DNA of 43,083 nucleotides, taken from assembly GCA_034659655.1 (NCBI GenBank), contig JAYEHT010000201.1, positions 1-43,083 on the forward strand, written 5' to 3'. The position numbers and the translations under genes are program-made. The DNA comes from Candidatus Aerophobota bacterium (GTDB taxonomy: Bacteria; Aerophobota; Aerophobia; Aerophobales; JAGGXI01). The notes below the pieces were generated by a model that was not told the DNA's origin, did no database searches, and was given only the letters and a program-made list of their open reading frames with translations. Shown piece by piece: positions 1,545 through 37,906 of the stretch. The stretch's first letter is position 1. Each line of letters begins with the position of its first letter.

Positions 1545-1616
1545 GCGGGGGTAGCTCAGCTGGTAGAGCATCGGCCTTAAAATCCTGGAATCTCCCGTAG
1601 CCGTTCAGGTCCTCCA
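1545..1616 (+). pseudogene. degenerate copy of tRNA-Gly(TCC); 5' half intact, 3' half scrambled
   Basis: 1542-1578 is identical to 3866-3902, which covers 3 nt of leader plus the tRNA-Gly 5' end through the first two anticodon-loop bases. After that the anticodon stem and T arm no longer fold. Only CCGTTC (1601-1606) and CTCCATAAT (1612-1620) echo the intact gene. Confidence 0.7.
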
Positions 1617-1627
1617 TAATTTTCCTC

Positions 1628-2908
1628 TCACCCAAGCTTCCTGACTTTTCTGGGAGCTGCAACCCACAAAAGGATACAAGACACACAGGTTACCAGGATA
1701 GCTATGATAAGGGCTATAAAATAGCTCTTTGTGGTATCAAATACAAACCCTCCAAACCAGGGTCCCAAAATACCTCCCAACCCGAAACTCAGAAGCATAA
1801 ACCCGTTGATAGAACCGAAATTTTTGCTGTGGAATATATCAGCTACTGCTGCTCCCAGAACAGGCCCATTCATTCCCATCCCTAACCCAAAAAAAATTGC
1901 ATATAAATAAGGTATCCAGCTATGAGAAACCTTTTCGAGCAGCAAAAGCATAAAAAGACCCAGAATTGAGGCAAGACATGCCAAAGTAAATGTTTTTTCT
2001 CTACCGATTTTATCCGAGATAAAACCACTCAAGCTCCCCAAAACCACCATTATTCCCCAGAGAGCAACTATTGAGGTGGCAAAAGCATTGCTGAATTCAG
2101 CATCTCTCAACAGAGCAATCTGATGAACCACCACAAAGTTTTCTACCAACCCAAAAATGCAAAAATATGTAAAAAACGTAAACCAAAACTGATAAGTCCC
2201 CATAGCTTTTCTTAAAGTCCAATTGACATTTACCCACTCTTTATCCACTTTCACTGTGCTTTGTACCCGATTGAGAGTTGATTTTGCTCTCTCTAAAGGA
2301 TGAATCCCATCTGGCAAAAGACCCACATCTTGAGGCCTATGACGAGAAAAAAGAGCAATCAGGGGCAGTAAAATAACCCCTATAAGGACACCAACCAAAA
2401 TAAAGGATGTACGCCAGCCGAATTTTGTGATTAAGGATTGCAGGAGGGGAATCATAAGGAAAGATGTCCCCCATCCTGAGGTAAATATTCCAAGGGCCAT
2501 TCCTCTTCTTCTAATAAACCAGTGAGGTAACACAGCAGCGTTAGCTGGATACCCTACCAAACTGATACCAATAGCATTTACTACGCCAAACAAAAGATAA
2601 AAATGATATAAGGTATTTACTTTGCTGCACAGTATCATAGCTAAAGTCAGAATAGTTGCCCCGGCTAAAAGAATCTTTTTGGGTCCGAATCTATCCACCA
2701 GAGCTCCAGCAAAAGGAGCAGTTATTCCGTATACAATTACGTTAACAGAGAAGATCCCGGCAGTGCTGGCTCTACTCCATCCAAATTCATTTAAAATCAC
2801 CACATAAAAAACTGAAAATGAATTACGAGATGCATAGGCTAAAACCATAGCAACAAAAGACATTGCTAAAACAATCCATCCGTAAAAGAATAGAGGTTTT
2901 TTACTCAT
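1628..2908 (-). CDS. MFS transporter (12-TM; oxalate/formate-antiporter-like subgroup is a guess)
   Basis: 426 aa, hydrophobic throughout with a central cytoplasmic loop. MFS-type motif DRFGPKK after TM2. Confidence 0.8.
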   Translation of the reverse strand: MSKKPLFFYGWIVLAMSFVAMVLAYASRNSFSVFYVVILNEFGWSRASTAGIFSVNVIVYGITAPFAGALVDRFGPKKILLAGATILTLAMILCSKVNTLYHFYLLFGVVNAIGISLVGYPANAAVLPHWFIRRRGMALGIFTSGWGTSFLMIPLLQSLITKFGWRTSFILVGVLIGVILLPLIALFSRHRPQDVGLLPDGIHPLERAKSTLNRVQSTVKVDKEWVNVNWTLRKAMGTYQFWFTFFTYFCIFGLVENFVVVHQIALLRDAEFSNAFATSIVALWGIMVVLGSLSGFISDKIGREKTFTLACLASILGLFMLLLLEKVSHSWIPYLYAIFFGLGMGMNGPVLGAAVADIFHSKNFGSINGFMLLSFGLGGILGPWFGGFVFDTTKSYFIALIIAILVTCVSCILLWVAAPRKVRKLG

Positions 2909-3201
2909 ATCTACATATATTAAAAGAAAAAATCAGTGGAGTCAATCAGACGCATTAAATCTGTCACCGCAAAATGATAATGCCATACTACTGTGAAATG
3001 TTTCAGATCAAAACAAATGAATAAAGAGAAAAAAATGGGAAAAAATCAGTTTGGGAAGACAAGTCCCCGAAAAGGACGGTTTCTAATTGCTGATAAGCTA
3101 TTAGAAATGACTTTCGAAGCTGATGGGGTTTTGCGGGAGATACAGCCTGATGGGCGGAGGGACGGTCAGGCGTATCGGGGGAATACAAAATAAGCTAAAA
3201 A

Positions 3202-3459
3202 TTAATACTCTAATTTAACTCCAAGTTTTTCAGCAATTTGTTGAATCCACTTTTCATGACGGTCCACTTTATGAGCTAACGCCACCATCTCCTGAAAGTA
3301 AGTGTCAGCTTTCTTAGCATAAGTATCAACTGCATTTAGTAAATTATTAACATCCTTTTTAGTAGAAAGATCTTTTACAGCTTCTTTTAAATCCTCTTTA
3401 GTGGCAAATACTTCTATAAGTTTTCGAATGTCATTATTAGTAAGCATATCTGCAGTCAC
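3202..3459 (-). CDS. small hypothetical helical protein (85 aa)
   Basis: Clean ORF with its own near-consensus promoter. Charged helical sequence ending KVDRHEKWIQQIAEKLGVKLEY. No family recognised. Confidence 0.5.
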   Translation of the reverse strand: MTADMLTNNDIRKLIEVFATKEDLKEAVKDLSTKKDVNNLLNAVDTYAKKADTYFQEMVALAHKVDRHEKWIQQIAEKLGVKLEY

Positions 3460-3482
3460 TTTAGTTTATTATTTCTGATTTT

Positions 3483-3510
3483 ATTATAACTCATCAAAAA
3501 GTAGTGTCAA
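3483..3510 (-). promoter_or_regulatory. sigma70-like promoter candidate for ORF 3202..3459
   Basis: On the minus strand: TTGACA (3510-3505), a 16-nt spacer, TATAAT (3488-3483). Confidence 0.45.
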
Positions 3511-3703
3511 ATTCTCCCATTTAAAACCTTCTCTTTTTTCATTATACTTATTTTTGAGGAGATCTCAAGTCAAAGTATGACAAATTATTTTTTTCTGGGT
3601 CCCATAAGGTCTGAAACATTTCAAGCTGAAAAGCCATAACTGGCAAGTTTTTCCTGAGGTATGGGGACATATGTCACTATTTTAAGTGATTTGATGCGAA
3701 ATA

Positions 3704-3732
3704 TTGACTTAAATAGAAAAATAATATATATT
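3704..3732 (+). promoter_or_regulatory. sigma70-like promoter candidate upstream of the tRNA operon
   Basis: TTGACT at 3704-3709, a 17-nt spacer, TATATT at 3727-3732. This would give a purine-rich leader of about 130 nt. A second TATAAT at 3857-3862 lies 7 nt before the tRNA-Gly 5' end. Confidence 0.4.
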
Positions 3733-3868
3733 ATAAAAGCGAAAGGGGAACAGAAAAGGGAGGTCTCCATAACCATAAGAGATAGGCAGTGGAAGGGAGA
3801 ATATTTAGACACCAAAGGAGAAATCAGAGAAAGCTTAAAATCCCAAAAATCCTAATTATAATGAACAT

Positions 3869-3944
3869 GCGGGGGTAGCTCAGCTGGTAGAGCATCGGCC
3901 TTCCAAGCCGATTGTCGCGGGTTCGAACCCCGTTCCCCGCTCCA
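3869..3944 (+). tRNA. tRNA-Gly (anticodon TCC), CCA encoded
   Basis: Acceptor GCGGGGG/TCCCCGC, anticodon stem TCGGC/GCCGA with loop CTTCCAA, T arm GCGGG-TTCGAAC-CCCGT, then T-CCA. Confidence 0.9.
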
Positions 3945-3948
3945 TAAT

Positions 3949-4026
3949 GGTGAGCGTAGCTCAATTGGTTAGAGCTCTGGACTGTGGATCCAGTGGTCGG
4001 GGGTTCAAATCCCCTCGCTCACCCCA
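3949..4026 (+). tRNA. tRNA-His (anticodon GTG) with encoded G-1 and CCA
   Basis: Extra 5' G before acceptor GTGAGCG/CGCTCAC, anticodon stem CTGGA/TCCAG with loop CTGTGGA, T arm GGGGG-TTCAAAT-CCCCT, discriminator C, CCA. Confidence 0.9.
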
Positions 4027-4064
4027 TATATTTTAGGAAATCATTAAACTCTTCATTTTTTAAA

Positions 4065-4161
4065 GGGGAGCAGGCCTTGCTTGCTCGAGTGAAACGAGAG
4101 TCGGCTTTGCCGACAAGGCCGTTGAGGGGGAAATGCGAAGCATGTCCCCCTCAAGGATCTT
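4065..4161 (+). repeat. structured intergenic repeat, copy 1 (three hairpins)
   Basis: Near-identical to 4454-4553. Closing helix GGCCTT (4073-4078) / AAGGCC (4115-4120) encloses hairpins 4084-4100 and 4100-4114. A long hairpin TTGAGGGGGA...TCCCCCTCAA follows at 4122-4154. The element abuts the 5' end of tRNA-Lys. Confidence 0.8.
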
Positions 4162-4235
4162 GGGCCGTTAGCTCAATTAGGCAGAGCAACGGACTCTTAA
4201 TCCGTAGGTTACAGGTTCGATTCCTGTACGGCCCA
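4162..4235 (+). tRNA. tRNA-Lys (anticodon CTT)
   Basis: Acceptor GGGCCGT/ACGGCCC, anticodon stem ACGGA/TCCGT with loop CTCTTAA, T arm ACAGG-TTCGATT-CCTGT. No encoded CCA. Confidence 0.9.
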
Positions 4236-4240
4236 TCAAA

Positions 4241-4312
4241 GCGGGAATAGCTCAGTGGTAGAGCATCACCTTGCCAAGGTGAGGGTCGCGGGTTCAAATC
4301 CCGTTTCCCGCT
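4241..4312 (+). tRNA. tRNA-Gly (anticodon GCC)
   Basis: Acceptor GCGGGAA/TTCCCGC, anticodon stem TCACC/GGTGA with loop TTGCCAA, T arm GCGGG-TTCAAAT-CCCGT. No encoded CCA. Confidence 0.9.
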
Positions 4313-4320
4313 CTCTAAGG

Positions 4321-4406
4321 GCGAGGGTGGCGGAATTGGTAGACGCGCTAGACTTAGGATCTAGTGAGATATTCTCATGCGGGTTCAAGTCCCGCCTCTC
4401 GCACCA
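4321..4406 (+). tRNA. tRNA-Leu (anticodon TAG), long variable arm, CCA encoded
   Basis: Acceptor GCGAGGG/CTCTCGC, anticodon stem CTAGA/TCTAG with loop CTTAGGA, variable arm TGAGATATTCTCAT, T arm GCGGG-TTCAAGT-CCCGC, A-CCA. Confidence 0.9.
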
Positions 4407-4453
4407 AAATATTTATAGCATCGGAATTTCAAAAACTCCTTCGAATTAAACAG

Positions 4454-4553
4454 GGGGAGCAGGCCTTGCTTGCTCGAGCGAAGCGAGAGTCGGCTTTGCC
4501 GATAAGGCCGTTGAGGGGGAAATTACGAAGGAATGTCCCCCTCAAATATCTTG
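4454..4553 (+). repeat. structured intergenic repeat, copy 2
   Basis: Same architecture as 4065-4161. Differences from copy 1 fall in hairpin positions as paired or wobble changes (see finding). It ends 17 nt before the tig start codon. Confidence 0.8.
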
Positions 4554-4570
4554 AAAAAGGAAAATAAGTA

Positions 4571-5875
4571 ATGGAAATAAGCATAGAAAAAAAAGAAAAC
4601 TCAGAGGTTAGTTTAAAGGTAGAATTCCCGGAAAAAAGAGTAGAAGAGGAACTTTCCCAGGCTTTTCGGAAATTGGTTAAAAATGTAGAAATCCCCGGTT
4701 TTAGAAAAGGAAAGATTCCCAGAAAAATATTTGAAAGAAGATTTGGAGAAGAGAGGATTCGGGAAGGGGTTATAAAAAAAGTCTATCCCGAAGTTCACAG
4801 AGAAATAGTAAATAGATATAAATTATTACCTCTCATTGAGCCAGAAATGAAGATTTTACAATTTTCTCGCCATAAGCCTCTAATCTTAGAAGTAAATCTA
4901 ATAACCGGACCGGAAGTTAAATTAGATAAATATAAAGAGATTAAAGTTGAGAGAGAGAAGATAAAGATATCTGAGGGTGAAATAGAAGAGGCGCTAAAGA
5001 ATCTCCAAAAACAATCTACTACTTATATTCCTGTTGAAGAGAAAAGGGAAATAAGAGAAGGAGATGGGATAATTATGGATTGGCAAGGTTTCTATAAAAA
5101 GGGGAAAAAACCTTTTATAAAAAAGGGAAAAGGAGAGTTTTTCAAAGTAGGTTCCTCCACATTTCCTCCTTCTTTCTCTAAAGGGTTAATTGGATTGAAG
5201 GTGGGAGAGAGAAAAAAAATAGAGATTACATTTCCCCCCTCTTTCTCTCAAAAGGAACTTGCAGGAGAAAAGGTCTCTTTTGATATAAACATAAGAGAAA
5301 TAAAGAAAGAAAAAATTCCTCAAATTGATGATGAGTTTGCCAGGGATCTCCAATTTGATAATTTAGAAGCTTTGAAAAAACATATTAAAGAAAGCTTAGC
5401 CGAAGTAAAAGAGAATAAAAGAAGAAAGAGCATAGAAAACCAGATAATTAAAAAAGTAGTAGATAGCTCTCAGGTTAATCTTTCTCCTTCCTTAATAGAA
5501 AGAAAAAAAGAGGAAAGATTAAAAGGATTAGAACTAAAGTTAAAAAATCAGAAGTATTCACTTGAAGAGTATATTAAGCAGCAGAAAACAAGCAAAGAAG
5601 AACTTGAAGAAAAAATAAAGTTGGAGATAGAAAAAGAACTGAAAACATTCTTCACCTTGCAAGCTATTACAGAAAAAGAGGAGATAGAAGTTAAAGAAGA
5701 GGAAGTAGAGAAAAGAATAAAAACTTTGATGAAGGGAGAAAAGACCGAGGAGAAGGTAAAAAAAATAAAGGAAAACCTGGCCAAGCAGGGAGATTTAGAG
5801 CTGCTTAAAAGTCAGATAAGACAGGAAAAAACAATTGATTTTTTATATAATGAGGCTAATATTAAAGGAGAGTAA
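4571..5875 (+). CDS. tig: trigger factor
   Basis: 434 aa. N-terminal ribosome-binding signature GFRKGKIP, a central FKBP-like segment, and a Lys/Glu-rich C-terminal arm. Lies immediately upstream of clpP as in many bacteria. Confidence 0.9.
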
Positions 5876-6491: not shown

Positions 6492-8270
6492 TTGGTTGAA
6501 CAGGGGAAGATAATAAAAATCTCCGGTCCTTTAGTAGTAACTAAAGGTATCCCTCATGCTCGAATGTATGATGTAGTGAGGGTAGGAGAGAAAAGACTGA
6601 TTGGGGAAATCCTGGAGATAAGAGGCGAGAGAGCATCTATCCAGGTTTATGAGGATACAGGCGGCTTAAAACCTGGAGAACCTGTAGAATCTACCTATCA
6701 ACCCTTATCCGTAGAGTTAGCCCCTGGAATAATAGGAAATATATACGATGGAATACAGCGTCCTTTAGATCTCATCAAAGCAAAAACAGGAGATTTCATA
6801 ACCCGTGGGGTAGAGATGGAAGCGGTTGACAGAAAAAAAGAGTGGGAGTTTAAACCAACAGTAAAAATAGGAGAAAAGGTTTCTGGTGGAGATATATTAG
6901 GAGTGGTTCAGGAAACAGAGATAATAGAATATCGTCTTCTTGTTCCCCCGGGAATAGAAGGGAGAATAGAGAAAATCCATTCGGGTAGAGCAAAAGTGGA
7001 AGATGTAATTGCAGTAATTAAAACAGCAAAGGGGGGGAAGGAGGAAGTATCAATGCTCCAGAAATGGCCGGTAAGAAAGATGAGGCCCTATAAAAAACAG
7101 CTGGATCCTGCGCTGCCTCTTATTACCGGGCAAAGGGTTATTGATACATTTTTTCCTATAGCTAAAGGAGGCACAGCTTGCATTCCGGGACCATTTGGAA
7201 GTGGCAAAACTGTAATTCAGCATCAGCTATCCAAATGGGCGGATGCGGAAATTATTGTTTTCGTAGGTTGTGGAGAAAGAGGCAATGAGATGACCGATGT
7301 CCTGCGGGAATTTCCTGAATTAAAGGACCCTAAAACAGGTAAACCTTTAATGCAGAGAACTATTCTCATTGCTAACACATCTAATATGCCCGTAGCTGCT
7401 CGAGAAGCTTCTATTTATACAGGAATAACTTTAGCTGAGTATTATCGGGATATGGGTTATAATGTTGCTTTAATGGCTGATTCTACTTCTCGCTGGGCTG
7501 AAGCCTTAAGGGAGATGTCGGGAAGACTTGAAGAGATGCCGGGAGAAGAAGGATATCCAGCTTATCTTCCCTCAAGATTAGCAGAGTTTTATGAAAGAGC
7601 AGGAAGAATCATCTGTTTAGGGAAAGATGAGCGGGAGGCGAGTTTAAGCGCTATTGGGGCAGTATCTCCCCCTGGGGGAGACCTCTCTGAACCAGTAACT
7701 CAGGCTACCTTGCGGGTAGTTAGAGTATTTTGGGCTCTGATAGCTGAACTTGCCTATCAGCGCCACTTCCCAGCCATCCACTGGCTAAGAAGCTATTCTC
7801 TTTATGTAGATAATCTTAAGGAGTATTTTTCTAAAAGAATAGCCTCTGATTGGGTGAAACTGCGAGGTAAAGCTATAGCTCTTTTGCAAAAAGAGGATGA
7901 ATTAAAGGAGACTGTAAGACTTGTAGGATTAGACGCTTTATCCGATGAAGACAGAATAGCTATGGAAACTGCTCGTTCGGTAAGAGAAGATTTCCTGCAA
8001 CAGTTTGCCTTTCATGAAATAGATACCTACACTCCCATAAAGAAACAGTATCTAATGTTAAAATTAATTTTAAGTTATTACGATTTATCTCTTGAAGCTT
8101 TAAATAACGGAGCTCCTCTGGAAGAGCTCATATCTCTTCCAGTAAGGGAAGATATAGCAAAAGCAAAGTATACCCCCAATGAAGAGATTGAAAATGAGAT
8201 GAAAAAGATAAGTCAAAATTTAAAAGAAGAGATGAACAAATTGGGAAAAGAAGCGGAGGAGAGAATATGA
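6492..8270 (+). CDS. ntpA: V/A-type ATPase catalytic subunit A
   Basis: 592 aa. Walker A GPFGSGKT, and the non-homologous insert typical of A subunits. Begins at a TTG 2 nt after the clpP stop, with AAGGA about 9 nt upstream. Confidence 0.9.
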
Positions 8271-9655
8271 GAACTAGGGAATATACCTCAGTAAAGGAGC
8301 TTACAGGACCCCTTATGTTAATAGATAAAGTCTCCGATGTTTCCTACGAAGAATTAGTAGAGATAGAACTCTCTAATGGAGAAAAAAGGAGGGGAAGAGT
8401 ATTAGAGGTGACTTCTGAGACAGCGCTGGTGCAACTGTTCGAACGAGCAACAGATTTAGGAGTTAAAGGAGCTCAAATAAAATTTTTAGGCAAGGGTATC
8501 CAATTAGGAGTATCTGAAGATATCTTAGGAAGAGTATTTGATGGATGGGGAAGACCCCGAGATGGAGGAGCAGAGATAATCCCGGAAAAAAGAGTGGATA
8601 TAGAGGGAATACCGATAAACCCTGAGGCTCGTGCTTACCCCGTAGAATTTATTCAAACAGGAACCTCAGCTATTGATGGGCTAAACACTCTTTCCAGGGG
8701 GCAGAAATTACCAATCTTTTCCGGAGCAGGCCTCCCTCATGTGCAACTTGCCGCTCAAATAGCCAGACAGGCTAAAGTCTTGAAAAAAGAGGAGGAGTTT
8801 GCTGTAGTTTTTGCGGCTATGGGAACGACTTTTGAAGAAGCAAACTTTTTCATCTCGGACTTTGAAAAAAGTGGAGCCATAGAAAAAGTTGTCCTTTTTC
8901 TCAATCTTGCTGATGACCCTGTGATTGAGAGAATTGCTACTCCCAGAATGGCTTTAACCTGCGCTGAATATTTAGCTTTTGAAAAAGAGATGCATATCCT
9001 CGTTATTTTAACTGATATGACCAACTATGCAGAAGCTCTTCGGGAAATTTCCGCTGCTCGTCGAGAAGTCCCTGGAAGAAGGGGCTATCCCGGCTACCTT
9101 TATACCGACTTAGCTACCCTTTACGAGCGTGCTGGTAGAATTAAGGGAAGAGAAGGTTCTATTACCTTAATTCCCATTCTTACAATGCCCGATGATGATA
9201 AAACCCATCCTATTCCTGATCTTACCGGCTACATTACTGAAGGGCAGATAATTCTCCAGAGAAACCTTCACCAAAAAGGAATTTATCCTCCTATTAATGT
9301 TCTTCCCTCCTTATCCCGTTTAATGGATGAAGGGGTAGGAGAAGGGAAAACTCGAGAAGACCATAGAGAACTCTCCAATCAGCTCTATGCCGCTTATGCT
9401 CAAGGAATGGAAATTAGAGAATTAGCTCTGGTTATGGGAGAAGCTACTCTCAGCAAAATGGACAAAAAATATCTCCTGTTCGCTGATAGGTTTGAAGAAG
9501 AATTTACTTCTCAAGGAGAAAACGAAAATAGAGAAGTAGAGGAGACATTGAATTTAGGGTGGAAGCTCCTTAAAATAATTCCTACCCCTGAGCTAAAACG
9601 AGTAAGAGACGAATATATAGAAAAATATGGAAAAAGAGATAAAAAGAGAGATTAA
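8267..9655 (+). CDS. ntpB: V/A-type ATPase subunit B
   Basis: 462 aa with a degenerate P-loop region (FSGAGLPH) and [26 protein letters not shown] overlap with ntpA. Confidence 0.9.
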
Positions 9656-27790: not shown

Positions 27791-27814
27791 GGGTAGGGGA
27801 GGCTTTAGCCTCCC
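27791..27814. repeat. REP-like unit 1 (GTAG + 7-bp hairpin)
   Basis: GGGTAGGGGAGGCTTTAGCCTCCC, with stem GGGAGGC/GCCTCCC and loop TTTA. Lies 2 nt beyond the RAYT stop codon. Confidence 0.8.
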
Positions 27815-27816
27815 TT

Positions 27817-28263
27817 TTATTCATAAAAAACAGCACCATACCTGTTCTTATAGTACATTGCACTTGAAAACTTATAATTTTCTGCTCTCTCAGCCAATCC
27901 TACTTTTACAGGGTTATAATGAATATAGTTGAATTTCTTTTTAAATTTATCCTCTGAAAAGAGCGTTAAATCGTAAAATCCTTTTTGCCAAAATTTTCCT
28001 TTATTGATAGCTTTTGAACTTCTTCCTTTTATCATCTGCATAATCTTTGAAATTCCATCCTTCACAGGTTTTAAAAGAATATGAAGATGATCTGGCATTA
28101 TTACATAAGCAATTAACACAAAATAACCTTCTCTTGTCAATTCTTTGATAGTTCCATCAATTAATTTCATCTCTGATCTATTAAAGGTACGACCAATATT
28201 AGCTATTCGGGTACTCACAAAATAAATCATTCCATCAATTTCGAAATGCGGTGGCTGAGCCAT
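27817..28263 (-). CDS. REP-associated tyrosine transposase (RAYT) / IS200-like Y1 HUH transposase
   Basis: 148 aa. HUH motif in IMPDHLHILL, catalytic-Tyr region NYIHYNPVKVGLAERAENYKFSS. Flanked by inverted GTAG-hairpin repeats. Confidence 0.8.
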   Translation of the reverse strand: MAQPPHFEIDGMIYFVSTRIANIGRTFNRSEMKLIDGTIKELTREGYFVLIAYVIMPDHLHILLKPVKDGISKIMQMIKGRSSKAINKGKFWQKGFYDLTLFSEDKFKKKFNYIHYNPVKVGLAERAENYKFSSAMYYKNRYGAVFYE

Positions 28264-28279: not shown

Positions 28280-28305
28280 GAGGGCGACTAAAGTCGCCCC
28301 TACCC
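28280..28305. repeat. REP-like unit 2 (inverted orientation, compensated stem)
   Basis: The reverse complement reads GGGTAGGGGCGACTTTAGTCGCCCTC. Flank, GTAG and TTTA loop match unit 1. The stem core CGAC/GTCG replaces AGGC/GCCT. Confidence 0.8.
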
Positions 28306-28330
28306 CCCTACGAAGTTGTCCTTATTTCTT

Positions 28331-28353
28331 GGTAGAGGAGGCTTTAGCCTCCC
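28331..28353. repeat. REP-like unit 3 (same orientation as unit 1)
   Basis: GGTAGAGGAGGCTTTAGCCTCCC, directly after the aroB stop codon. With its flanks (28328-28356) it forms a ~30-nt direct repeat with 27788-27817. Confidence 0.8.
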
Positions 28354-28354
28354 T

Positions 28355-29425
28355 TTAAAGAACGCTCTTTATTATACGAGGAGGAACATCTCCTGTAAGA
28401 AATACCTCTCCTATATCCTTAGGCAATACAAAATGAATTCTTTCTCCCTTCCTTTTCTTATCTCTATAAAGAGCTCTCCAGAGTCTATTTTTATCTAATC
28501 CTCTTACTTCTGTAGGCAAACCAAAATCTTTTAAAAGCTTCTTCAGGCGAAAAAGCTTATCCTGAGAAAAAATTCCCATCTTTACAGCAATCTTCCCCGC
28601 AGCTACCATTCCTACAGATACAGCTTCACCATGGGTATACCTCTTATATTCGGTAACTACCTCTATAGCGTGCCCTATGGTATGCCCAAAATTTAAAAAT
28701 TCCCTTCCCTTTCTCTCTTCCCTCTCATCTTTTTCTACTATACGAGCTTTATTCCTCGCCGCCCTGGTTATTATAAACTGAAGAGAGTCCTCATCTAATC
28801 TCTTTATGCAGGATAAATTTTTCTCTAAATAAAGAAAAAGCTCTTTATCCTTTATTATCCCATATTTTACTACCTCAGCTAACCCTCCTTTAACTTCTCG
28901 CAAGGGGAGCGTCTTTAAAACCTTCTGATTCATATAGACAAACATCGGTTGATAAAAAGAGCCTACTAAATTTTTTCCTTCAGGCAGATTTACTGCTGTT
29001 TTCCCCCCTATGCTGGCATCAACCTGAGCAAGAAGAGTGGTGGGAAAAGAGATAAAATTTATCCCCCTCAGGTAAGTAGAAGCTACAAATCCTGCTAAAT
29101 CCCCTATAACTCCTCCTCCGAGAGCAAGTATAGTAGAATAGCGATCTAAGTTATGTTGAATACACCAATTATACAATTTTAACGCCTGAGATAATGATTT
29201 ATATCTTTCCCCCTGGGGAACCTTAGCTAAAAAGACATTAAAACCAGAACTCTCAAGACTATTTTTTACTTTCTCTCCGTATAATCCATAAACCTTTCCA
29301 TTGCTGACAATTAAAACCCTTTCTCCTCTATTAAAATCGGAAGCTATTTTTCCTATATTATCTATCTTCCCCCCTATATATACCGGATAACTCCGTTTAT
29401 CAAGGTTAACGGTAATTATATTCAT
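28355..29425 (-). CDS. aroB: 3-dehydroquinate synthase
   Basis: 356 aa with ALGGGVIGDLAGFVASTYLRGI, DASIGGKTAVN, and NFGHTIGHAIE. Confidence 0.9.
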   Translation of the reverse strand: MNIITVNLDKRSYPVYIGGKIDNIGKIASDFNRGERVLIVSNGKVYGLYGEKVKNSLESSGFNVFLAKVPQGERYKSLSQALKLYNWCIQHNLDRYSTILALGGGVIGDLAGFVASTYLRGINFISFPTTLLAQVDASIGGKTAVNLPEGKNLVGSFYQPMFVYMNQKVLKTLPLREVKGGLAEVVKYGIIKDKELFLYLEKNLSCIKRLDEDSLQFIITRAARNKARIVEKDEREERKGREFLNFGHTIGHAIEVVTEYKRYTHGEAVSVGMVAAGKIAVKMGIFSQDKLFRLKKLLKDFGLPTEVRGLDKNRLWRALYRDKKRKGERIHFVLPKDIGEVFLTGDVPPRIIKSVL

Positions 29426-33984: not shown

Positions 33985-34048
33985 AATACGAGTTTAAAAA
34001 CAGAAAAATTGAAAGTTCCTCTGACTAAGATTTAGCAAGCATTATGGA

Positions 34049-34085
34049 GGGAGTCAAAACAAAGTTGACTCCCTTTTTCTTTTTT
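34049..34085 (+). terminator. intrinsic-terminator-like hairpin just inside the IS left end
   Basis: GGGAGTCAA (34049-34057) pairs with TTGACTCCC (34065-34073), followed by a T-run at 34074-34085. An extended -10 (TGGTATAAT, 34085-34093) for the IS genes follows immediately. Confidence 0.55.
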
Positions 34086-34131
34086 GGTATAATCCTATAT
34101 GTATATATTATATAAAGAAATAGGATAGCTT

Positions 34132-34539
34132 ATGATGGTAGACAGAAAAGCTCTTAGTGATATTCGTCAAGAGATAGTCTGGTTAAGGGAGGATCGAAAA
34201 AAATTAGAAGATTCACTTTTTAGACCAAAGAAAATGATTAGAGCCTCCTTAGTCTTTTTACCCAACTATTGCGGTAAAAAGGATTGTAGGTGCAAAAAGG
34301 GATTCCCTCACGGACCATATCCTTATCTTTCAGAAAGAAGAAAAGGAAAGACGAGAATGACCTATGTAAAAAAGAGCGATCTTTATGAGATAAAGGCTCA
34401 AGCCGAGGAATACGCTCGGTTTCAGCATAAATTAGCTCGCCTTACCAAGATAAACAAGAAGATAAGGTCCCTTTTGGAGAAGATACGAGATTTGAATTGT
34501 CGAGAAGTAGATGAATACAGGAAGAGAGGGGAAAAATGA
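34132..34539 (+). CDS. IS accessory protein (small Cys-rich / HGPY-motif protein)
   Basis: 135 aa with the motif CGKKDCRCKKGFPHGPYPYLSERRKGK. This resembles accessory ORFs found upstream of some IS transposases. ATGA overlap with the transposase. Confidence 0.6.
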   Translation: MMVDRKALSDIRQEIVWLREDRKKLEDSLFRPKKMIRASLVFLPNYCGKKDCRCKKGFPHGPYPYLSERRKGKTRMTYVKKSDLYEIKAQAEEYARFQHKLARLTKINKKIRSLLEKIRDLNCREVDEYRKRGEK

Positions 34540-36128
34540 GAGAAACTATTAAGGTATGGATAAGGAACGAGAAGAAGACAGAGGAAGCTATAATTAACGG
34601 AGAAAAGGTTGAAGTAGTAGAAAGTGATTTTGGAGCTAATGAGTTTGTCATTGACTTTCTCAAAGAGGCAGGTTTCTGGGATATTATAACAGACATGAAG
34701 CCCGAGATGAAAAAGAACAATGGATACCCATCAAATATCATCTTAGGCACTCTCATTATGAAGGAACTCCTCTCTATAGGCAAGCTATCCGGAGTTGGTA
34801 AGATTATTCAAGACGGCAAACTTATGGCCGATACCGGCTTTAATATTGAAAAAATTAAGAAAGCTGAAGAAAAGGGAAAGGGAGTAATAGATCTGGGGAC
34901 CTTGAGGAATCACCTAAAGAAGATTCCTCAAGATGAATCAGACAAAGCTTTTTATCAACATATCAAAATCTCGAGGGATAAAAGATGGATCAGGGGCAAG
35001 GAATATGTAGCTGATGCAGTAGAACTGGAGATTCCTTACGGAGAAACCTTTGAAGGGATGGGAAGAGTATGGAAGAAAAAGGAGAAAGGGTATAAATATG
35101 GCTACAAATTAGAGCTTTTGATGAATGTCACCACCACCGGAAGACTGCGCTTTATAGGGGCAGCCTTAGGTCCCATAAATAGTGATGAGAGGGCTCTTCT
35201 CACCCATATTTTCCAGGATATAGAAAAATATCTGGGCAAGGGTAAGGTAGGCGAGATAATAGATAGCCTTACCTTAGATAGAGGTTATTGGGAAGGACGT
35301 TTCTTGTGGGAATTAAAACATAGGTGGAAAGTAGACTTTGTCACCTTAGTTAGAGATGATGACCTTGATTTTGTCAAACATGTAGAGTACTACTTAAGAG
35401 GAGTAGAACCAACTTTCAAGGAAAGATGGATACAGGTTAAGAAAAGAGGGAGAAAAGAGAAAAAGAAGATCAGGATATGCGGAATCAATGGACTTTACTT
35501 AAGAAGGTACTCTAAAGAGGGAAAAGAAAAGGACTTAGGTAAAGTCAACGCCGTAGTTGTCTATGATGAAAAAGATGGAAGGATGAGAAGAAGGATTTAT
35601 GTTACTCCCCTGGAGGCTGAAGAGGACCCTTTAAAAATCTACAAGTGCTACAAGGATAGATGGACCATTGAAAATCAAGGAATAAGGTATCTATCCCAGA
35701 GATGGAACTTGAGAGATTTGGCTGGAAGAAGCCTAAATTCTATTCAGGCCAGAATCTGGACCATTCTTGTGCTTTACAATGCGGTAAAGATTCTAGAGAT
35801 GAAATATGAGAATAAGATGGAGAAGCTCAAGGATAAAATGAGAGAAAAAGGTGAGCGATCCTATCTTTCAGGTTCTGCCTTAATAGTTTATGGAAAAGAT
35901 AAATACTACGGGATCTTTAGTGGAGTTGAATATGCTAGGCTTACCACCAAAAGAAGGAATCAAGAAATCGCCAAAGAACTGGAGAAAATGTTAGTGGAAA
36001 AGGCCTCAAAGAAGAAAATAGTCGAGTTTGTAAAGAGACTCATCAGGTTAGCATTAGGGATATCAATCCCCACTTCTATCTCAAAGAAGAAAATAGCTGA
36101 GTTTATAAAAAGATTAAGGAAAGAGTAG
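34536..36128 (+). CDS. DDE transposase, IS4 family-like
   Basis: 530 aa with LTLDRGYWEG (second Asp region) and YKDRWTIENQGIRYL (the Y-2-R-3-E signature of IS4-type transposases). Confidence 0.8.
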   Translation: MRETIKVWIRNEKKTEEAIINGEKVEVVESDFGANEFVIDFLKEAGFWDIITDMKPEMKKNNGYPSNIILGTLIMKELLSIGKLSGVGKIIQDGKLMADTGFNIEKIKKAEEKGKGVIDLGTLRNHLKKIPQDESDKAFYQHIKISRDKRWIRGKEYVADAVELEIPYGETFEGMGRVWKKKEKGYKYGYKLELLMNVTTTGRLRFIGAALGPINSDERALLTHIFQDIEKYLGKGKVGEIIDSLTLDRGYWEGRFLWELKHRWKVDFVTLVRDDDLDFVKHVEYYLRGVEPTFKERWIQVKKRGRKEKKKIRICGINGLYLRRYSKEGKEKDLGKVNAVVVYDEKDGRMRRRIYVTPLEAEEDPLKIYKCYKDRWTIENQGIRYLSQRWNLRDLAGRSLNSIQARIWTILVLYNAVKILEMKYENKMEKLKDKMREKGERSYLSGSALIVYGKDKYYGIFSGVEYARLTTKRRNQEIAKELEKMLVEKASKKKIVEFVKRLIRLALGISIPTSISKKKIAEFIKRLRKE

Positions 36129-36415
36129 TTTCTCTATACTCTGCTGCCAAATTCAAGGGATTATCTCGCCCACGAGAGGGGAAGTATTGCTTTTTTCCTA
36201 TCTTTTACCTCCTGAGGTAGTTATAAAGAGGAAATTCTTCTAAATTCCTTTCCCTACTTTCCGTTTTCCTATCAAAAAATTCTCATTTTATTCCATTTTT
36301 ACCCTGAGAACCCCAAAATAGCACCAACTTTCAATTTTTCTGTTAAAAAAATCGGGGTTGACGAAAAAAATATAAGTTATAATATAAAAGTGTGACCTTC
36401 CGATTTTTAATATTC

Positions 36416-36542: not shown

Positions 36543-36577
36543 CTTTTATCTATTTTACAAAATAGAAAGGCTTTTTG

Positions 36578-37906
36578 ATGAATAGTAAAGAAGATATCTG
36601 GCAAAAACTTTTGTTTAATATCAAAAAGAAGGTTGATTCACAAAATTTCAAAGCGTGGTTAGAGCCTCTCCAAATGCACTCTCTCATTAATAATAAGATA
36701 ATTATTGGGACACCTAATAGTTTTTTTAAGGAGATGGTAGAGAAGAAGTATTTAAAGTTAATAAAAAAGGAGATGAGAGAGATAGTTGATGAAGATGTGG
36801 AGGTAGACTTTATTACTTCTTCCCCAACCAGAGACAAAAAAAGGGTAAATTCGGTTTACTCTTCCCCTAAAAAGAGACTTTTTAATAGACTAAATCCCAG
36901 ATACACTTTTTCTAATTTTGTAGTGGGTAATAATAATAGGTTGGCGCATGCCGCAGCCTTAGCAGTAGCACAATCACCTGCACAGGTATACAATCCTCTA
37001 TTTATCTATGGAGATGTAGGGTTAGGGAAGACACACCTTCTCCAGGCTATTGCTCATTATATTGTTGAGAAAAAAAAATTTTTAAAGTTTTCGTATATTT
37101 CATCAGAACAGTTTACTAATGAGATGATAAATGCTATTAAAGATGATAAAACAGTAGAATTTAGAAAGAAATATAGATATACGGATATTTTACTTGTGGA
37201 TGATATTCACTTCTTAGCAGGAAAAGAGAGGACGCAGGAAGAGTTTTTTCACACATTTAATGCCTTATACGAAGTTCATAAACAGATAGTTCTCTCAAGT
37301 GATAGATCCCCCACAGAGATTCCCACTCTCAAGGAAAGACTCCAATCCCGGTTTGAATGGGGATTAATTGCAGACATACAACCCCCAGATTTAGAAACAA
37401 GAGTTGCTATACTAAAGAAAAGGGCAGAGGCGGAGAAGATGGATCTTTCGGATGAAGTAGCTATATTCATAGCAGGGAGAGTAAAAACTAATATCCGTAA
37501 ATTAGAAGGTTGTTTGATACGTTTAATTGCTCGTGCTACTCTCTTTAAAGAGAAATTAGATAATGATTCCGCAAGAGAGATTCTAAAAGATATCCTTCCC
37601 GAAAAAGAACATACCTCTATTACTATCGGATTGATACAAAAAGTAGTAAGTGAGTATTATAGTATTAAGGAAGAAAATATAAAAAGTAAGAATAGAATGA
37701 AAACGATTGCTTTCCCAAGACAGATAGCAATGTATCTTTGCAGAGAGTTGACCGATGCTTCTTTTCCTGAGATTGGAGAGAAATTTGGAGGTAAAGACCA
37801 TACGACAGTAATGTACGCCTGGAGAAAAATAGACGGCTTAAAAGATAAGAATAAGAACTTACTGAGCGATCTCGAAAAGCTGAGTAAGATGTTAAAAAAC
37901 CATTGA
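36578..37906 (+). CDS. dnaA: chromosomal replication initiator protein DnaA
   Basis: Contains NPLFIYGDVGLGKTHLL (Walker A), LLVDDIHFL, and a C-terminal DNA-binding domain with FGGKDHTTVMYA. The ATG at 36578 (after GAAAGG) is preferred over the TTG at 36575. Confidence 0.95.
   Translation: MNSKEDIWQKLLFNIKKKVDSQNFKAWLEPLQMHSLINNKIIIGTPNSFFKEMVEKKYLKLIKKEMREIVDEDVEVDFITSSPTRDKKRVNSVYSSPKKRLFNRLNPRYTFSNFVVGNNNRLAHAAALAVAQSPAQVYNPLFIYGDVGLGKTHLLQAIAHYIVEKKKFLKFSYISSEQFTNEMINAIKDDKTVEFRKKYRYTDILLVDDIHFLAGKERTQEEFFHTFNALYEVHKQIVLSSDRSPTEIPTLKERLQSRFEWGLIADIQPPDLETRVAILKKRAEAEKMDLSDEVAIFIAGRVKTNIRKLEGCLIRLIARATLFKEKLDNDSAREILKDILPEKEHTSITIGLIQKVVSEYYSIKEENIKSKNRMKTIAFPRQIAMYLCRELTDASFPEIGEKFGGKDHTTVMYAWRKIDGLKDKNKNLLSDLEKLSKMLKNH

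Follow-up and report, generated by a model that had tools for sequence, protein, structure and literature searches.

When two nearly identical segments that are rich in G+C, fold well and covary in their helices are found in the spacers of a transfer RNA (tRNA) operon, in a genome that is otherwise rich in A+T, the question arises whether they form a functional RNA gene, a conserved part of the operon or something different. Such a pair is present in positions 1 to 43,083 of contig JAYEHT010000201.1 from a Candidatus Aerophobota bacterium (assembly GCA_034659655.1), a stretch referred to as the window throughout, and it illustrates that an element of this description is not necessarily a functional RNA gene. 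With a probability of about 0.62, the elements represent a previously undescribed family of non-autonomous, modular intergenic repeats in Candidatus Aerophobetes.

Two copies in a tRNA-tig operon

The genes for tRNA-Gly(tcc), His, Lys, Gly(gcc) and Leu(tag) span 3869-4406 of the window and are followed by the trigger factor gene tig, with its ATG at 4571. An earlier note, made from the sequence of the window, had described two near-identical copies of an element among these genes, and both coordinates and placement proved correct: the core of copy 1 occupies 4065-4161 and adjoins the 5' end of tRNA-Lys (which starts at 4161 or 4162), and the core of copy 2 occupies 4454-4553, between tRNA-Leu and tig, both on the + strand. 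In the alignment, 4065-4134 and 4454-4523 are 96% identical over 70 nt, and similarity reaches as far as ATCTTG at 4161 and 4553, respectively. Two 20-mers taken from the element each occur twice in the window, where shuffled sequence gives an expectation of 0.00-0.01, and the whole 43 kb holds two copies of the element. The cores have a G+C content of 0.54-0.56, equal to that of the neighbouring tRNAs, as compared with ~0.27-0.40 in flanking coding DNA and a background of ~33%, and on the + strand they fold with z-scores of -4.9 and -3.7 relative to shuffled sequence.

The extent of ~98 nt originally proposed holds for the core, but the inserted unit is longer, 125 and 136 nt in the two copies, owing to a less conserved AT-rich 5' module. 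This is seen by comparison with two relatives, L001 and L002, which were recovered through trigger factor (87% and 81% identical to that of the window) and have the same Gly-His-Lys-Gly-Leu-tig order with tRNA genes ~98% identical to those of the window. In both of them the two spacers are empty, the His-Lys spacer consisting of ~8 nt, ATATATTTT(T), and the Leu-tig spacer of ~30 nt. A global alignment leaves two clean gaps, the extra sequence of the window being 4035-4159 and 4415-4550, and the window copies are therefore clean insertions. Each lies in a T-run and is followed on its 3' side by TT (4160-4161 for copy 1, 4551-4552 for copy 2), which to judge from the sequence may possibly be either flank or a 2-bp duplication.

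Three more Aerophobetes lineages (L023, L025 and L027) likewise have a compact His-Lys spacer that lacks the element, and the covariance model of the element, R1, found no copy in these three loci. As neither the closest relatives nor these three lineages have the element in this operon, it is dispensable there. We can conclude that the copies are not a conserved part of the tRNA-tig operon and that the insertions arose in the lineage of the window after its split from the closest sampled relatives. The suggestion that the element is a processing or stability module in the sense of a conserved operon feature thus finds no support, an incidental effect on the operon at the RNA level being possible.

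Copies at other loci

One exact 20-mer was scanned against each of two large collections, yielding a single true locus in the genomes (L003) and two in the metagenomes (L005 and L008), while three further metagenome matches (L004, L006 and L007) were rejected as chance 20-mer matches in coding DNA of high G+C content. L003 is labelled 'Clostridia', yet its MnmG is closest to Aerophobetes proteins (85, 74 and 72% identity). Diverged copies were furthermore found by a profile hidden Markov model (HMM) together with the covariance model in L009 and L010, which are the same sequence and in which Tig is 48% identical to that of the window. In ~270 kb of fetched loci neither R1 nor nhmmer detected additional members, and plasmid, phage and viral collections gave no match to the element.

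The copies lie in unrelated surroundings (Table 1) and are in the sense orientation with respect to flanking genes at eight loci and antisense at one. Truncated, internally deleted, tandem and palindromic copies are all among those found, a behaviour typical of repeats, and the units thus occur singly or in tandem arrays and decay through internal deletion and module shuffling. In L017, which belongs to the same species as L003 (MnmG 99%), the interval that holds the L003 array carries a DUF2442 gene instead, and the array itself is flanked by a 14-bp direct repeat. The contig of L005 breaks within a copy at both ends, and the family thereby explains contig breaks in metagenome-assembled genomes of Aerophobetes. 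The element is accordingly short, non-coding and intergenic, with a stable predicted fold, an occurrence at unrelated loci and presence or absence between close relatives, and in these respects it fits the generic class of structured interspersed intergenic repeats exemplified by BOX, ERIC, Correia and RUP.

Anatomy and fold

A full unit of ~125-170 nt comprises an AT-rich 5' module, a GC-rich core and a tail ending in ...ATC. The 5' module is built from sub-modules, one of which is a small ATTYC-TTC-GRAAT hairpin, and the core consists, in order, of a leader GGGGAGCA, a 7-bp helix that closes a small multi-hairpin domain, and a 10-11-bp G5/C5 hairpin with a hypervariable apex.

The structure was tested on an alignment of ~100 columns made from the five most similar cores and L009:9720-9812, and comprised the closing helix P1 of 7 bp (GGCCTTG/CAAGGCC), two inner hairpins and the long hairpin P3 with a stem of 10 bp (TTGAGGGGGA/TCCCCCTCAA). 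In this alignment 94.4% of the cells are paired and seven pairs are changed on both sides, as against 1.6 +/- 1.1 in column shuffles (none of 500 reached seven) and 0-2 when the partners are slid. All seven pairs of P1 are paired in every aligned copy, and four of the seven are changed on both sides in L009, where P1 reads GGCTCGA/TCGAGCC, four consecutive pairs being replaced with pairing kept; its seventh pair is G-C in copy 1, G.T in copy 2 and A-T in L009. In P3, two of the ten pairs covary (T-A to C-G and A-T to G-C). The compensatory changes in the diverged L009 copy thus support the P1 and P3 helices. A possible alternative, a hairpin of 8 bp (GAGCAGGC/GCTTGCTC), is part of the minimum free energy (MFE) fold of copy 1, and the tested fold, when enforced, lies 4-11 kcal/mol above the MFE, but P1 is preferred over this alternative because of the four compensatory pairs in L009.

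Of the fold that had been proposed for both copies, the closing helix and the long hairpin are hence corroborated by covariation, whereas the two inner hairpins receive no support from further copies, in which they are either invariant in sequence or inconsistent. The change from T-A to C-G in hairpin 1 holds between the window copies, but the corresponding positions are T.G in L005 and G.G in L008, and a second register of this hairpin, CTCG/CGAG with a 7-nt loop, fits equally well. The change from G-C to G-T that was attributed to the closing pair of hairpin 2 fits better as the seventh pair of P1, and the next pair (the outer T-A) is broken in three of six copies. The apex of P3 is different in every copy, and the apices of copy 2 and of the second L003 copy are the inverted ATTCC-TTC-GGAAT hairpin of the 5' module; the difference between ATGC/GCAT and ATTAC/GGAAT in the third hairpin, which had been taken for compensation, therefore reflects the exchange of one hairpin module for another and not compensation at individual positions.

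The C-GAA-G triloop is a recurrent feature of the hairpin apices. The heptamer GCGAAGC is indeed present in hairpin 3 of copy 1 (4135-4141) and hairpin 1 of copy 2 (4478-4484), as had been pointed out, but chance expectation for the whole window is likewise two. GCGNAGC has been described as a DNA mini-hairpin of extraordinary stability (PMC13037366). Counts of G.T versus C.A, that is wobble versus mismatch, favour neither strand, and the sequence gives no verdict between DNA and RNA as the folded form.

Table 1. Parts of the two window copies, apices of P3 and copies at other loci. Positions without a locus prefix refer to the window.
Feature	Position	Strand or orientation	Remarks
Copy 1, whole inserted unit, 125 nt	4035..4159	+	single clean gap against L001 and L002, in which the His-Lys spacer is empty
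Copy 1, AT-rich 5' module AGGAAATCATTAAACTCTTCATTTTTTAAA	4035..4064	+	inside the insertion; resembles 5' modules of other copies
Copy 1, three-way-junction domain	4073..4120	+	P1 GGCCTTG 4073-4079 / CAAGGCC 4114-4120
Copy 1, hairpins 1 and 2 (putative)	4084-4100; 4101-4113	+	enclosed by P1; sequence-invariant or inconsistent among copies
Copy 1, long hairpin P3	4122..4154	+	arms TTGAGGGGGA 4122-4131 and TCCCCCTCAA 4145-4154; in MFE folds
Copy 1, P3 variable apex ATGC-GAA-GCAT	4132-4144	+	
Copy 1, 3' tail GGATC(TT)	4155..4161	+	adjoins tRNA-Lys; (R)NATCTTG common to most copies
Copy 2, whole inserted unit, 136 nt	4415..4550	+	delimited by alignment with L001 and L002, in which the Leu-tig spacer is empty
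Copy 2, AT-rich 5' module ATAGCATCGGAATTTCAAAAACTCCTTCGAATTAAACAG	4415..4453	+	ATCGGAAWTT and CAAAAAWTYCTTYRRATTAAA in common with L003 and L009 copies
Copy 2, three-way-junction domain	4462..4509	+	P1 4462-4468 / 4503-4509, seventh pair G.T
Copy 2, hairpins 1 and 2 (putative)	4473-4489; 4490-4502	+	enclosed by P1
Copy 2, long hairpin P3	4511..4545	+	arms 4511-4520 and 4536-4545
Copy 2, P3 apex ATTAC-GAA-GGAAT	4521-4535	+	inverted copy of the 5'-module hairpin motif
Copy 2, 3' tail ATATC(TTG)	4546..4553	+	3-5 nt before the tig Shine-Dalgarno sequence
P3 apex, copy 1			GC-GAA-GC
P3 apex, copy 2			AC-GAA-GG
P3 apex, first L003 copy			CGC-GAA-GCG
P3 apex, L005			CAC-GAA-GTG
P3 apex, L008			TATTTT
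P3 apex, second L003 copy			three mini-hairpins
L003 tandem pair	L003:3897-4159	antisense to both neighbours	between a GTPase gene and mnmG; assembly gap inside
L005 left-end copy		sense	~30 nt past a tyrosine-recombinase gene
L005 right-end copy	L005:4743-4891	sense	past a PfkB kinase gene; rearranged palindromic variant
L008 copy		sense	between two pilin-like genes of one operon
L009 array	L009:9548-9812	sense	between clpP and the V-ATPase A gene; 3' remnant, junction-deleted copy and full copy
L009 junction-deleted copy	L009:9570-9665		in the clpP/V-ATPase array
L009 copy in tRNA operon	L009:6369-6456		between tRNA-Gly and tRNA-His, adjoining His; lacks the P1 5' strand and hairpin 1
L009 5' module on its own	L009:6575-6605		His-Lys spacer

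RNA families, coding potential and transcription signals

The earlier note did not recognize the element as any RNA family, and the scans agree with this: at gathering scores, Rfam 15 matched only six tRNAs in the window, and at E<=10 nothing credible was obtained, the best overlap being BjrC68 at 20.1 bits against a gathering score of 39 and covering only hairpin 2 and P3. ARAGORN likewise reports six tRNAs only in the window, the element being neither tRNA-like nor tmRNA-like. A protein-coding function was considered since the core is open in five of six frames (the sixth contains stops), but it is rejected on account of the 2-nt indel in the apex between the copies, and a search of 5.8 billion proteins with the concatenated peptides of the five open frames yielded no homologue.

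Neither window copy contains a predicted sigma-70-like promoter, and the promoter-like sites found upstream of the operon copies are at 3704-3732 and 3835-3862. P3 is followed by AAGGATCTTG or AAATATCTTG, and no terminator-like site is present on the + strand of 3400-4700. An intrinsic terminator is rejected because no T-run follows the GC-rich hairpin, in agreement with the original view that the element is not a classic terminator.

Interpretation and alternatives

Several observations weigh against a family of mobile repeats. No copy was seen in ~125 kb of other Aerophobetes DNA, so that the high copy number expected of a mobile repeat is not apparent, and the total amounts to ~10 copies or fragments, the 20-mer scans having given one and two true loci. 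Cores from different contigs are 93-97% similar, the same as between the two window copies, which could reflect functional constraint and not recent spread. Neither a transposase nor terminal inverted repeats nor a target duplication of consistent form could be found for the element, and the flanks follow different patterns, with TT at both window insertions and the 14-bp repeat at the L003 array. The covariation in P1 furthermore comes from one lineage only (L009, identical in sequence to L010). The sense orientation to the flanking genes at eight of nine loci would be compatible with a function at the RNA level as well, and precise loss in the relatives is a possible alternative to gain in the window lineage.

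Should the elements nonetheless be repeats of this kind, their behaviour could be pictured as follows. Lying downstream of the operon promoter and in sense, both window copies should be transcribed as part of the tRNA-tig precursor, in which copy 1 would receive its 3' end through cleavage by RNase P at tRNA-Lys, and the tig mRNA would carry copy 2 as a structured leader at its 5' end, which stops 3-5 nt before the Shine-Dalgarno sequence. Such effects on processing or stability would be a by-product that makes insertions tolerable; they probably decide which insertions survive, namely those in sense and between genes, but are unlikely to be the reason for the existence of the element, since the closest relatives of the window lineage manage without it. 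Propagation may take place in trans via a single-stranded intermediate, either single-stranded DNA (ssDNA) or RNA, in which P1 and P3 are recognized by a putative enzyme. That both helices are kept by compensatory change between genera points to recognition of a single-stranded form during propagation, and this recognition would account both for the pairing kept across genera and for an apex that is free to vary.

The least unlikely alternative is that the element acts in cis as an RNA module and was recruited into operons because it serves processing, insulation or stability. The GC-rich three-way junction and hairpin would then fold within the polycistronic transcript and block exonucleases or direct endonucleolytic cuts, so that the 5' end of the downstream mRNA or tRNA would be defined and protected. 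This notion agrees with the predominant sense orientation, with the compensatory changes in P1 and P3, with a high G+C content resembling that of tRNAs within an AT-rich genome, and with the position of the 3' tail, whose end is separated by 0-12 nt from the 5' end of a downstream tRNA or from a downstream Shine-Dalgarno sequence in copies 1 and 2, L008, L009:9812 and L009:6456. However, the empty spacers are very short, so that any tolerated insertion must abut a gene start, and an orientation bias is equally expected from strand-specific insertion or purifying selection. In addition, the same operon lacks the element in the closest relatives and three other lineages, many copies are truncated or rearranged, and the L003 array is antisense to both of its neighbours, and a recruited module consequently appears doubtful.

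A bolder version of the repeat interpretation is that the elements are a new kind of mobile structured nucleic acid, whose propagation depends on the fold and uses neither terminal inverted repeats with a DDE transposase nor GTAG with a REP-associated tyrosine transposase (RAYT), and which would also supply operons with portable processing or stability signals. One possibility within it is an element that acts at the level of RNA or ssDNA and is moved by a putative unrecognized enzyme. We regard this as unlikely.

REP and BIME elements are thought to be mobilized as folded ssDNA, and the elements could by analogy be a second substrate class of the resident RAYT (an HUH/Y1 transposase). The window does contain a bona fide RAYT gene at 27817-28263(-) (NF047646, 105.5 bits against a cut-off of 80), the element shares hairpins and mosaic arrays with BIMEs, its inferred 3' boundary ..ATC|TT lies at a C|T step, TCTTG precedes both + strand REPs beside the RAYT gene and matches the element tail, and the recurring C-GAA-G triloops fit with the stable GCGNAGC mini-hairpin mentioned above. 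The likeness in TCTTG is however just 5 nt, the wobble and mismatch counts single out neither strand, and the repeats found beside the RAYT gene are of another kind, namely three GTAG-bearing REPs of the GGTAGRGGAGGCTTTAGCCTCCC type at 27792-27815(+), ~28284-28306(-) and 28331-28355(+). GTAG and CTAC are found in none of ten copies or fragments of the element, as had been observed for GTAG in comparison with the REPs of the window. The proposal of a second class of hairpin repeat is therefore retained as far as a mobile hairpin repeat is concerned, given the insertion polymorphism and the unrelated sites, whereas the link to the HUH transposase fails on both GTAG and the flanking repeat and is improbable.

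Other routes of mobilization fare no better. In a comparison of the first 35 nt with the reverse complement of the last 35, four of five copies are at shuffle level, and the match in copy 2 is an internal module and not a terminus. The ends of the insertion sequence (IS) at 33989-36354, which belongs to the DDE_Tnp_1 type and was the one IS compared, have no above-shuffle similarity to the element, so that the match to IS or miniature inverted-repeat transposable element (MITE) termini that would have spoken against a new element is not seen for this IS. A classical MITE is accordingly rejected, terminal inverted repeats and the ends of the resident DDE IS both being absent from the element. 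A PATE of the IS200/IS605 type is rejected as well, since the left flanks ATTTT, TATTT and AAACT provide no fixed target and the 5' hairpin ATTCC-TTC-GGAAT is unrelated to the 3' hairpin GAGGGGG/CCCCCTC; no IS200/IS605 tnpA or tnpB gene with the ends of the element was seen.

Highly improbable, finally, is an independently transcribed and horizontally mobile small RNA gene with the AT-rich 5' module as promoter and the core as RNA. In its favour, the 5' module is conserved along with the core and includes TTGAAT or TTGGAT ~17 nt upstream of an A-rich hexamer in L008 and L005, and the L003 array points away from mnmG as a divergent transcription unit would. Against it, neither window copy has a predicted sigma-70-like promoter, the shortened 5' modules of copies 1, 2 and L003 cannot accommodate a -10 element, the core is not followed by a terminator, and decayed copies are common. 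What had been offered as a novel small RNA family is thus upheld in that Rfam yields no match and two helices covary, but the element behaves like a dispersed, decaying and rearranging repeat, and its window copies lack a predicted sigma-70-like promoter.

A family of intergenic repeats thus remains the preferred interpretation. Transcript processing, genome rearrangement and assembly breaks are all shaped by small structured repeats of the intergenic kind, which are to our knowledge almost unstudied outside cultured model bacteria. The window offers a clean and datable case in an uncultivated phylum, with two insertions in an otherwise ~98% identical tRNA operon, and because the element bears none of the hallmarks usual in known mobilization systems, finding the mobilizing enzyme could reveal something new.

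Other observations on the region

The tRNA-operon spacers of Aerophobetes contain further repeats. A conserved 22-mer, GATTTGAAGCCGASYYGAGCGC, which may be another repeat or RNA motif, occurs in such spacers at L009:6013-6034, L023:2631-2652, L025:2351-2372 and L027:1117-1138 and is missing from the window. In other Aerophobetes the spacers are swollen to as much as ~415 nt by additional unrelated repeat families (L009:6846-6930, 7300-7335 and 7366-7390; L012:8480-8720, 8960-9075 and 9165-9560), which include CCCTCTCCCC..GGGAGAGGG palindromes, a GTAG REP and GTGCGATAAATCGCAC-type repeats, and in this phylum small repeats seem generally to accumulate in such spacers. The segment L012:8690-8722, just upstream of tRNA-Lys, ends in ...GTGAGGGGGTACGAG...GGCATATCTTG|GGCTGTT and resembles the GTTGAGGGGG arm and ATATCTTG tail of the element; it may be a decayed copy in the same spacer as window copy 1, a region in which neither the HMM nor the covariance model detected one.

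Upstream of the operon, tRNA-Arg(tct) is directly followed by the 5' half of a tRNA-Gly(tcc) gene at 1545-1580, which matches the beginning of the intact gene at 3869 with 93% identity, the relevant parts of the window being 1459-1533 and 3866-3944. In L002, tRNA-Arg is directly followed by an intact tRNA-Gly, which suggests that ~2.3 kb of the window (1581-3865) entered at the anticodon loop and that the 5' half of tRNA-Gly was thereby duplicated. An MFS transporter gene, at 1628-2908(-), and small open reading frames (ORFs) lie in this segment, within which no integrase was seen.

The IS at 33989-36354 has 29-nt terminal inverted repeats (33989-34017 / 36326-36354), contains a DUF6788 ORF (34132-34539) and the DDE_Tnp_1 transposase gene (34536-36128), and is inserted immediately upstream of dnaA (36575-37906); since it adjoins dnaA, the chromosomal origin region probably lies within the window. 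The V-type ATPase A-subunit gene encodes ~1120 aa including an intein with a LAGLIDADG endonuclease in L009:9830-13192 and L022:9611-12970, as compared with 592 aa and no intein in the window (6492-8270).

Comparison with known repeat systems

The PATEs derived from IS200/IS605 resemble the element in being polar, with sub-terminal hairpins, no clear target duplication and an orientation bias next to T-rich sequence, and TCAA likewise comes after the 3' hairpin; the element differs in that its left and right hairpins are unrelated and in that there is no conserved 4-5-nt target at the left.

ERIC/IRU, Correia (CREE) and MITE elements are in essence a single long palindrome, imperfect and bearing terminal inverted repeats, and TA is duplicated by those of the Correia type. 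Repeats of the ERIC and Correia type are transcribed into structured RNA that is able to alter the processing of neighbouring transcripts. The element is similar in its size of ~100-150 nt and in being non-autonomous, intergenic and insertion-polymorphic between close relatives, but it has no terminal inverted repeats and is strongly polar, with an AT-rich 5' end and a GC-rich 3' end. REPs, as found in E. coli and Pseudomonas, are single palindromes of 20-40 nt with a conserved 5' GTAG and can stabilize upstream mRNA. Like REPs and BIMEs, the element is a hairpin-forming intergenic repeat that forms mosaic tandem arrays after or between the genes of operons, in a genome that has a RAYT; unlike them, it is 95 nt or longer, comprises several helices and carries no GTAG.

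The BOX elements of Streptococcus pneumoniae are composed of boxA-boxB(n)-boxC modules, are intergenic and co-transcribed, form stem-loops, vary between strains and encode no transposase. The element is in the same way short, non-coding and intergenic, modular in variable number and combination, and predicted to form stable stem-loops, and it encodes no transposase, but its core is made up of a three-way junction with a covarying P1 and a G5/C5 hairpin, and few copies have been seen. As the host phyla differ, no sequence relationship with BOX is expected. In its behaviour the element would thus appear closest to the modular BOX elements and to repeats of the BIME, ERIC or Correia type.

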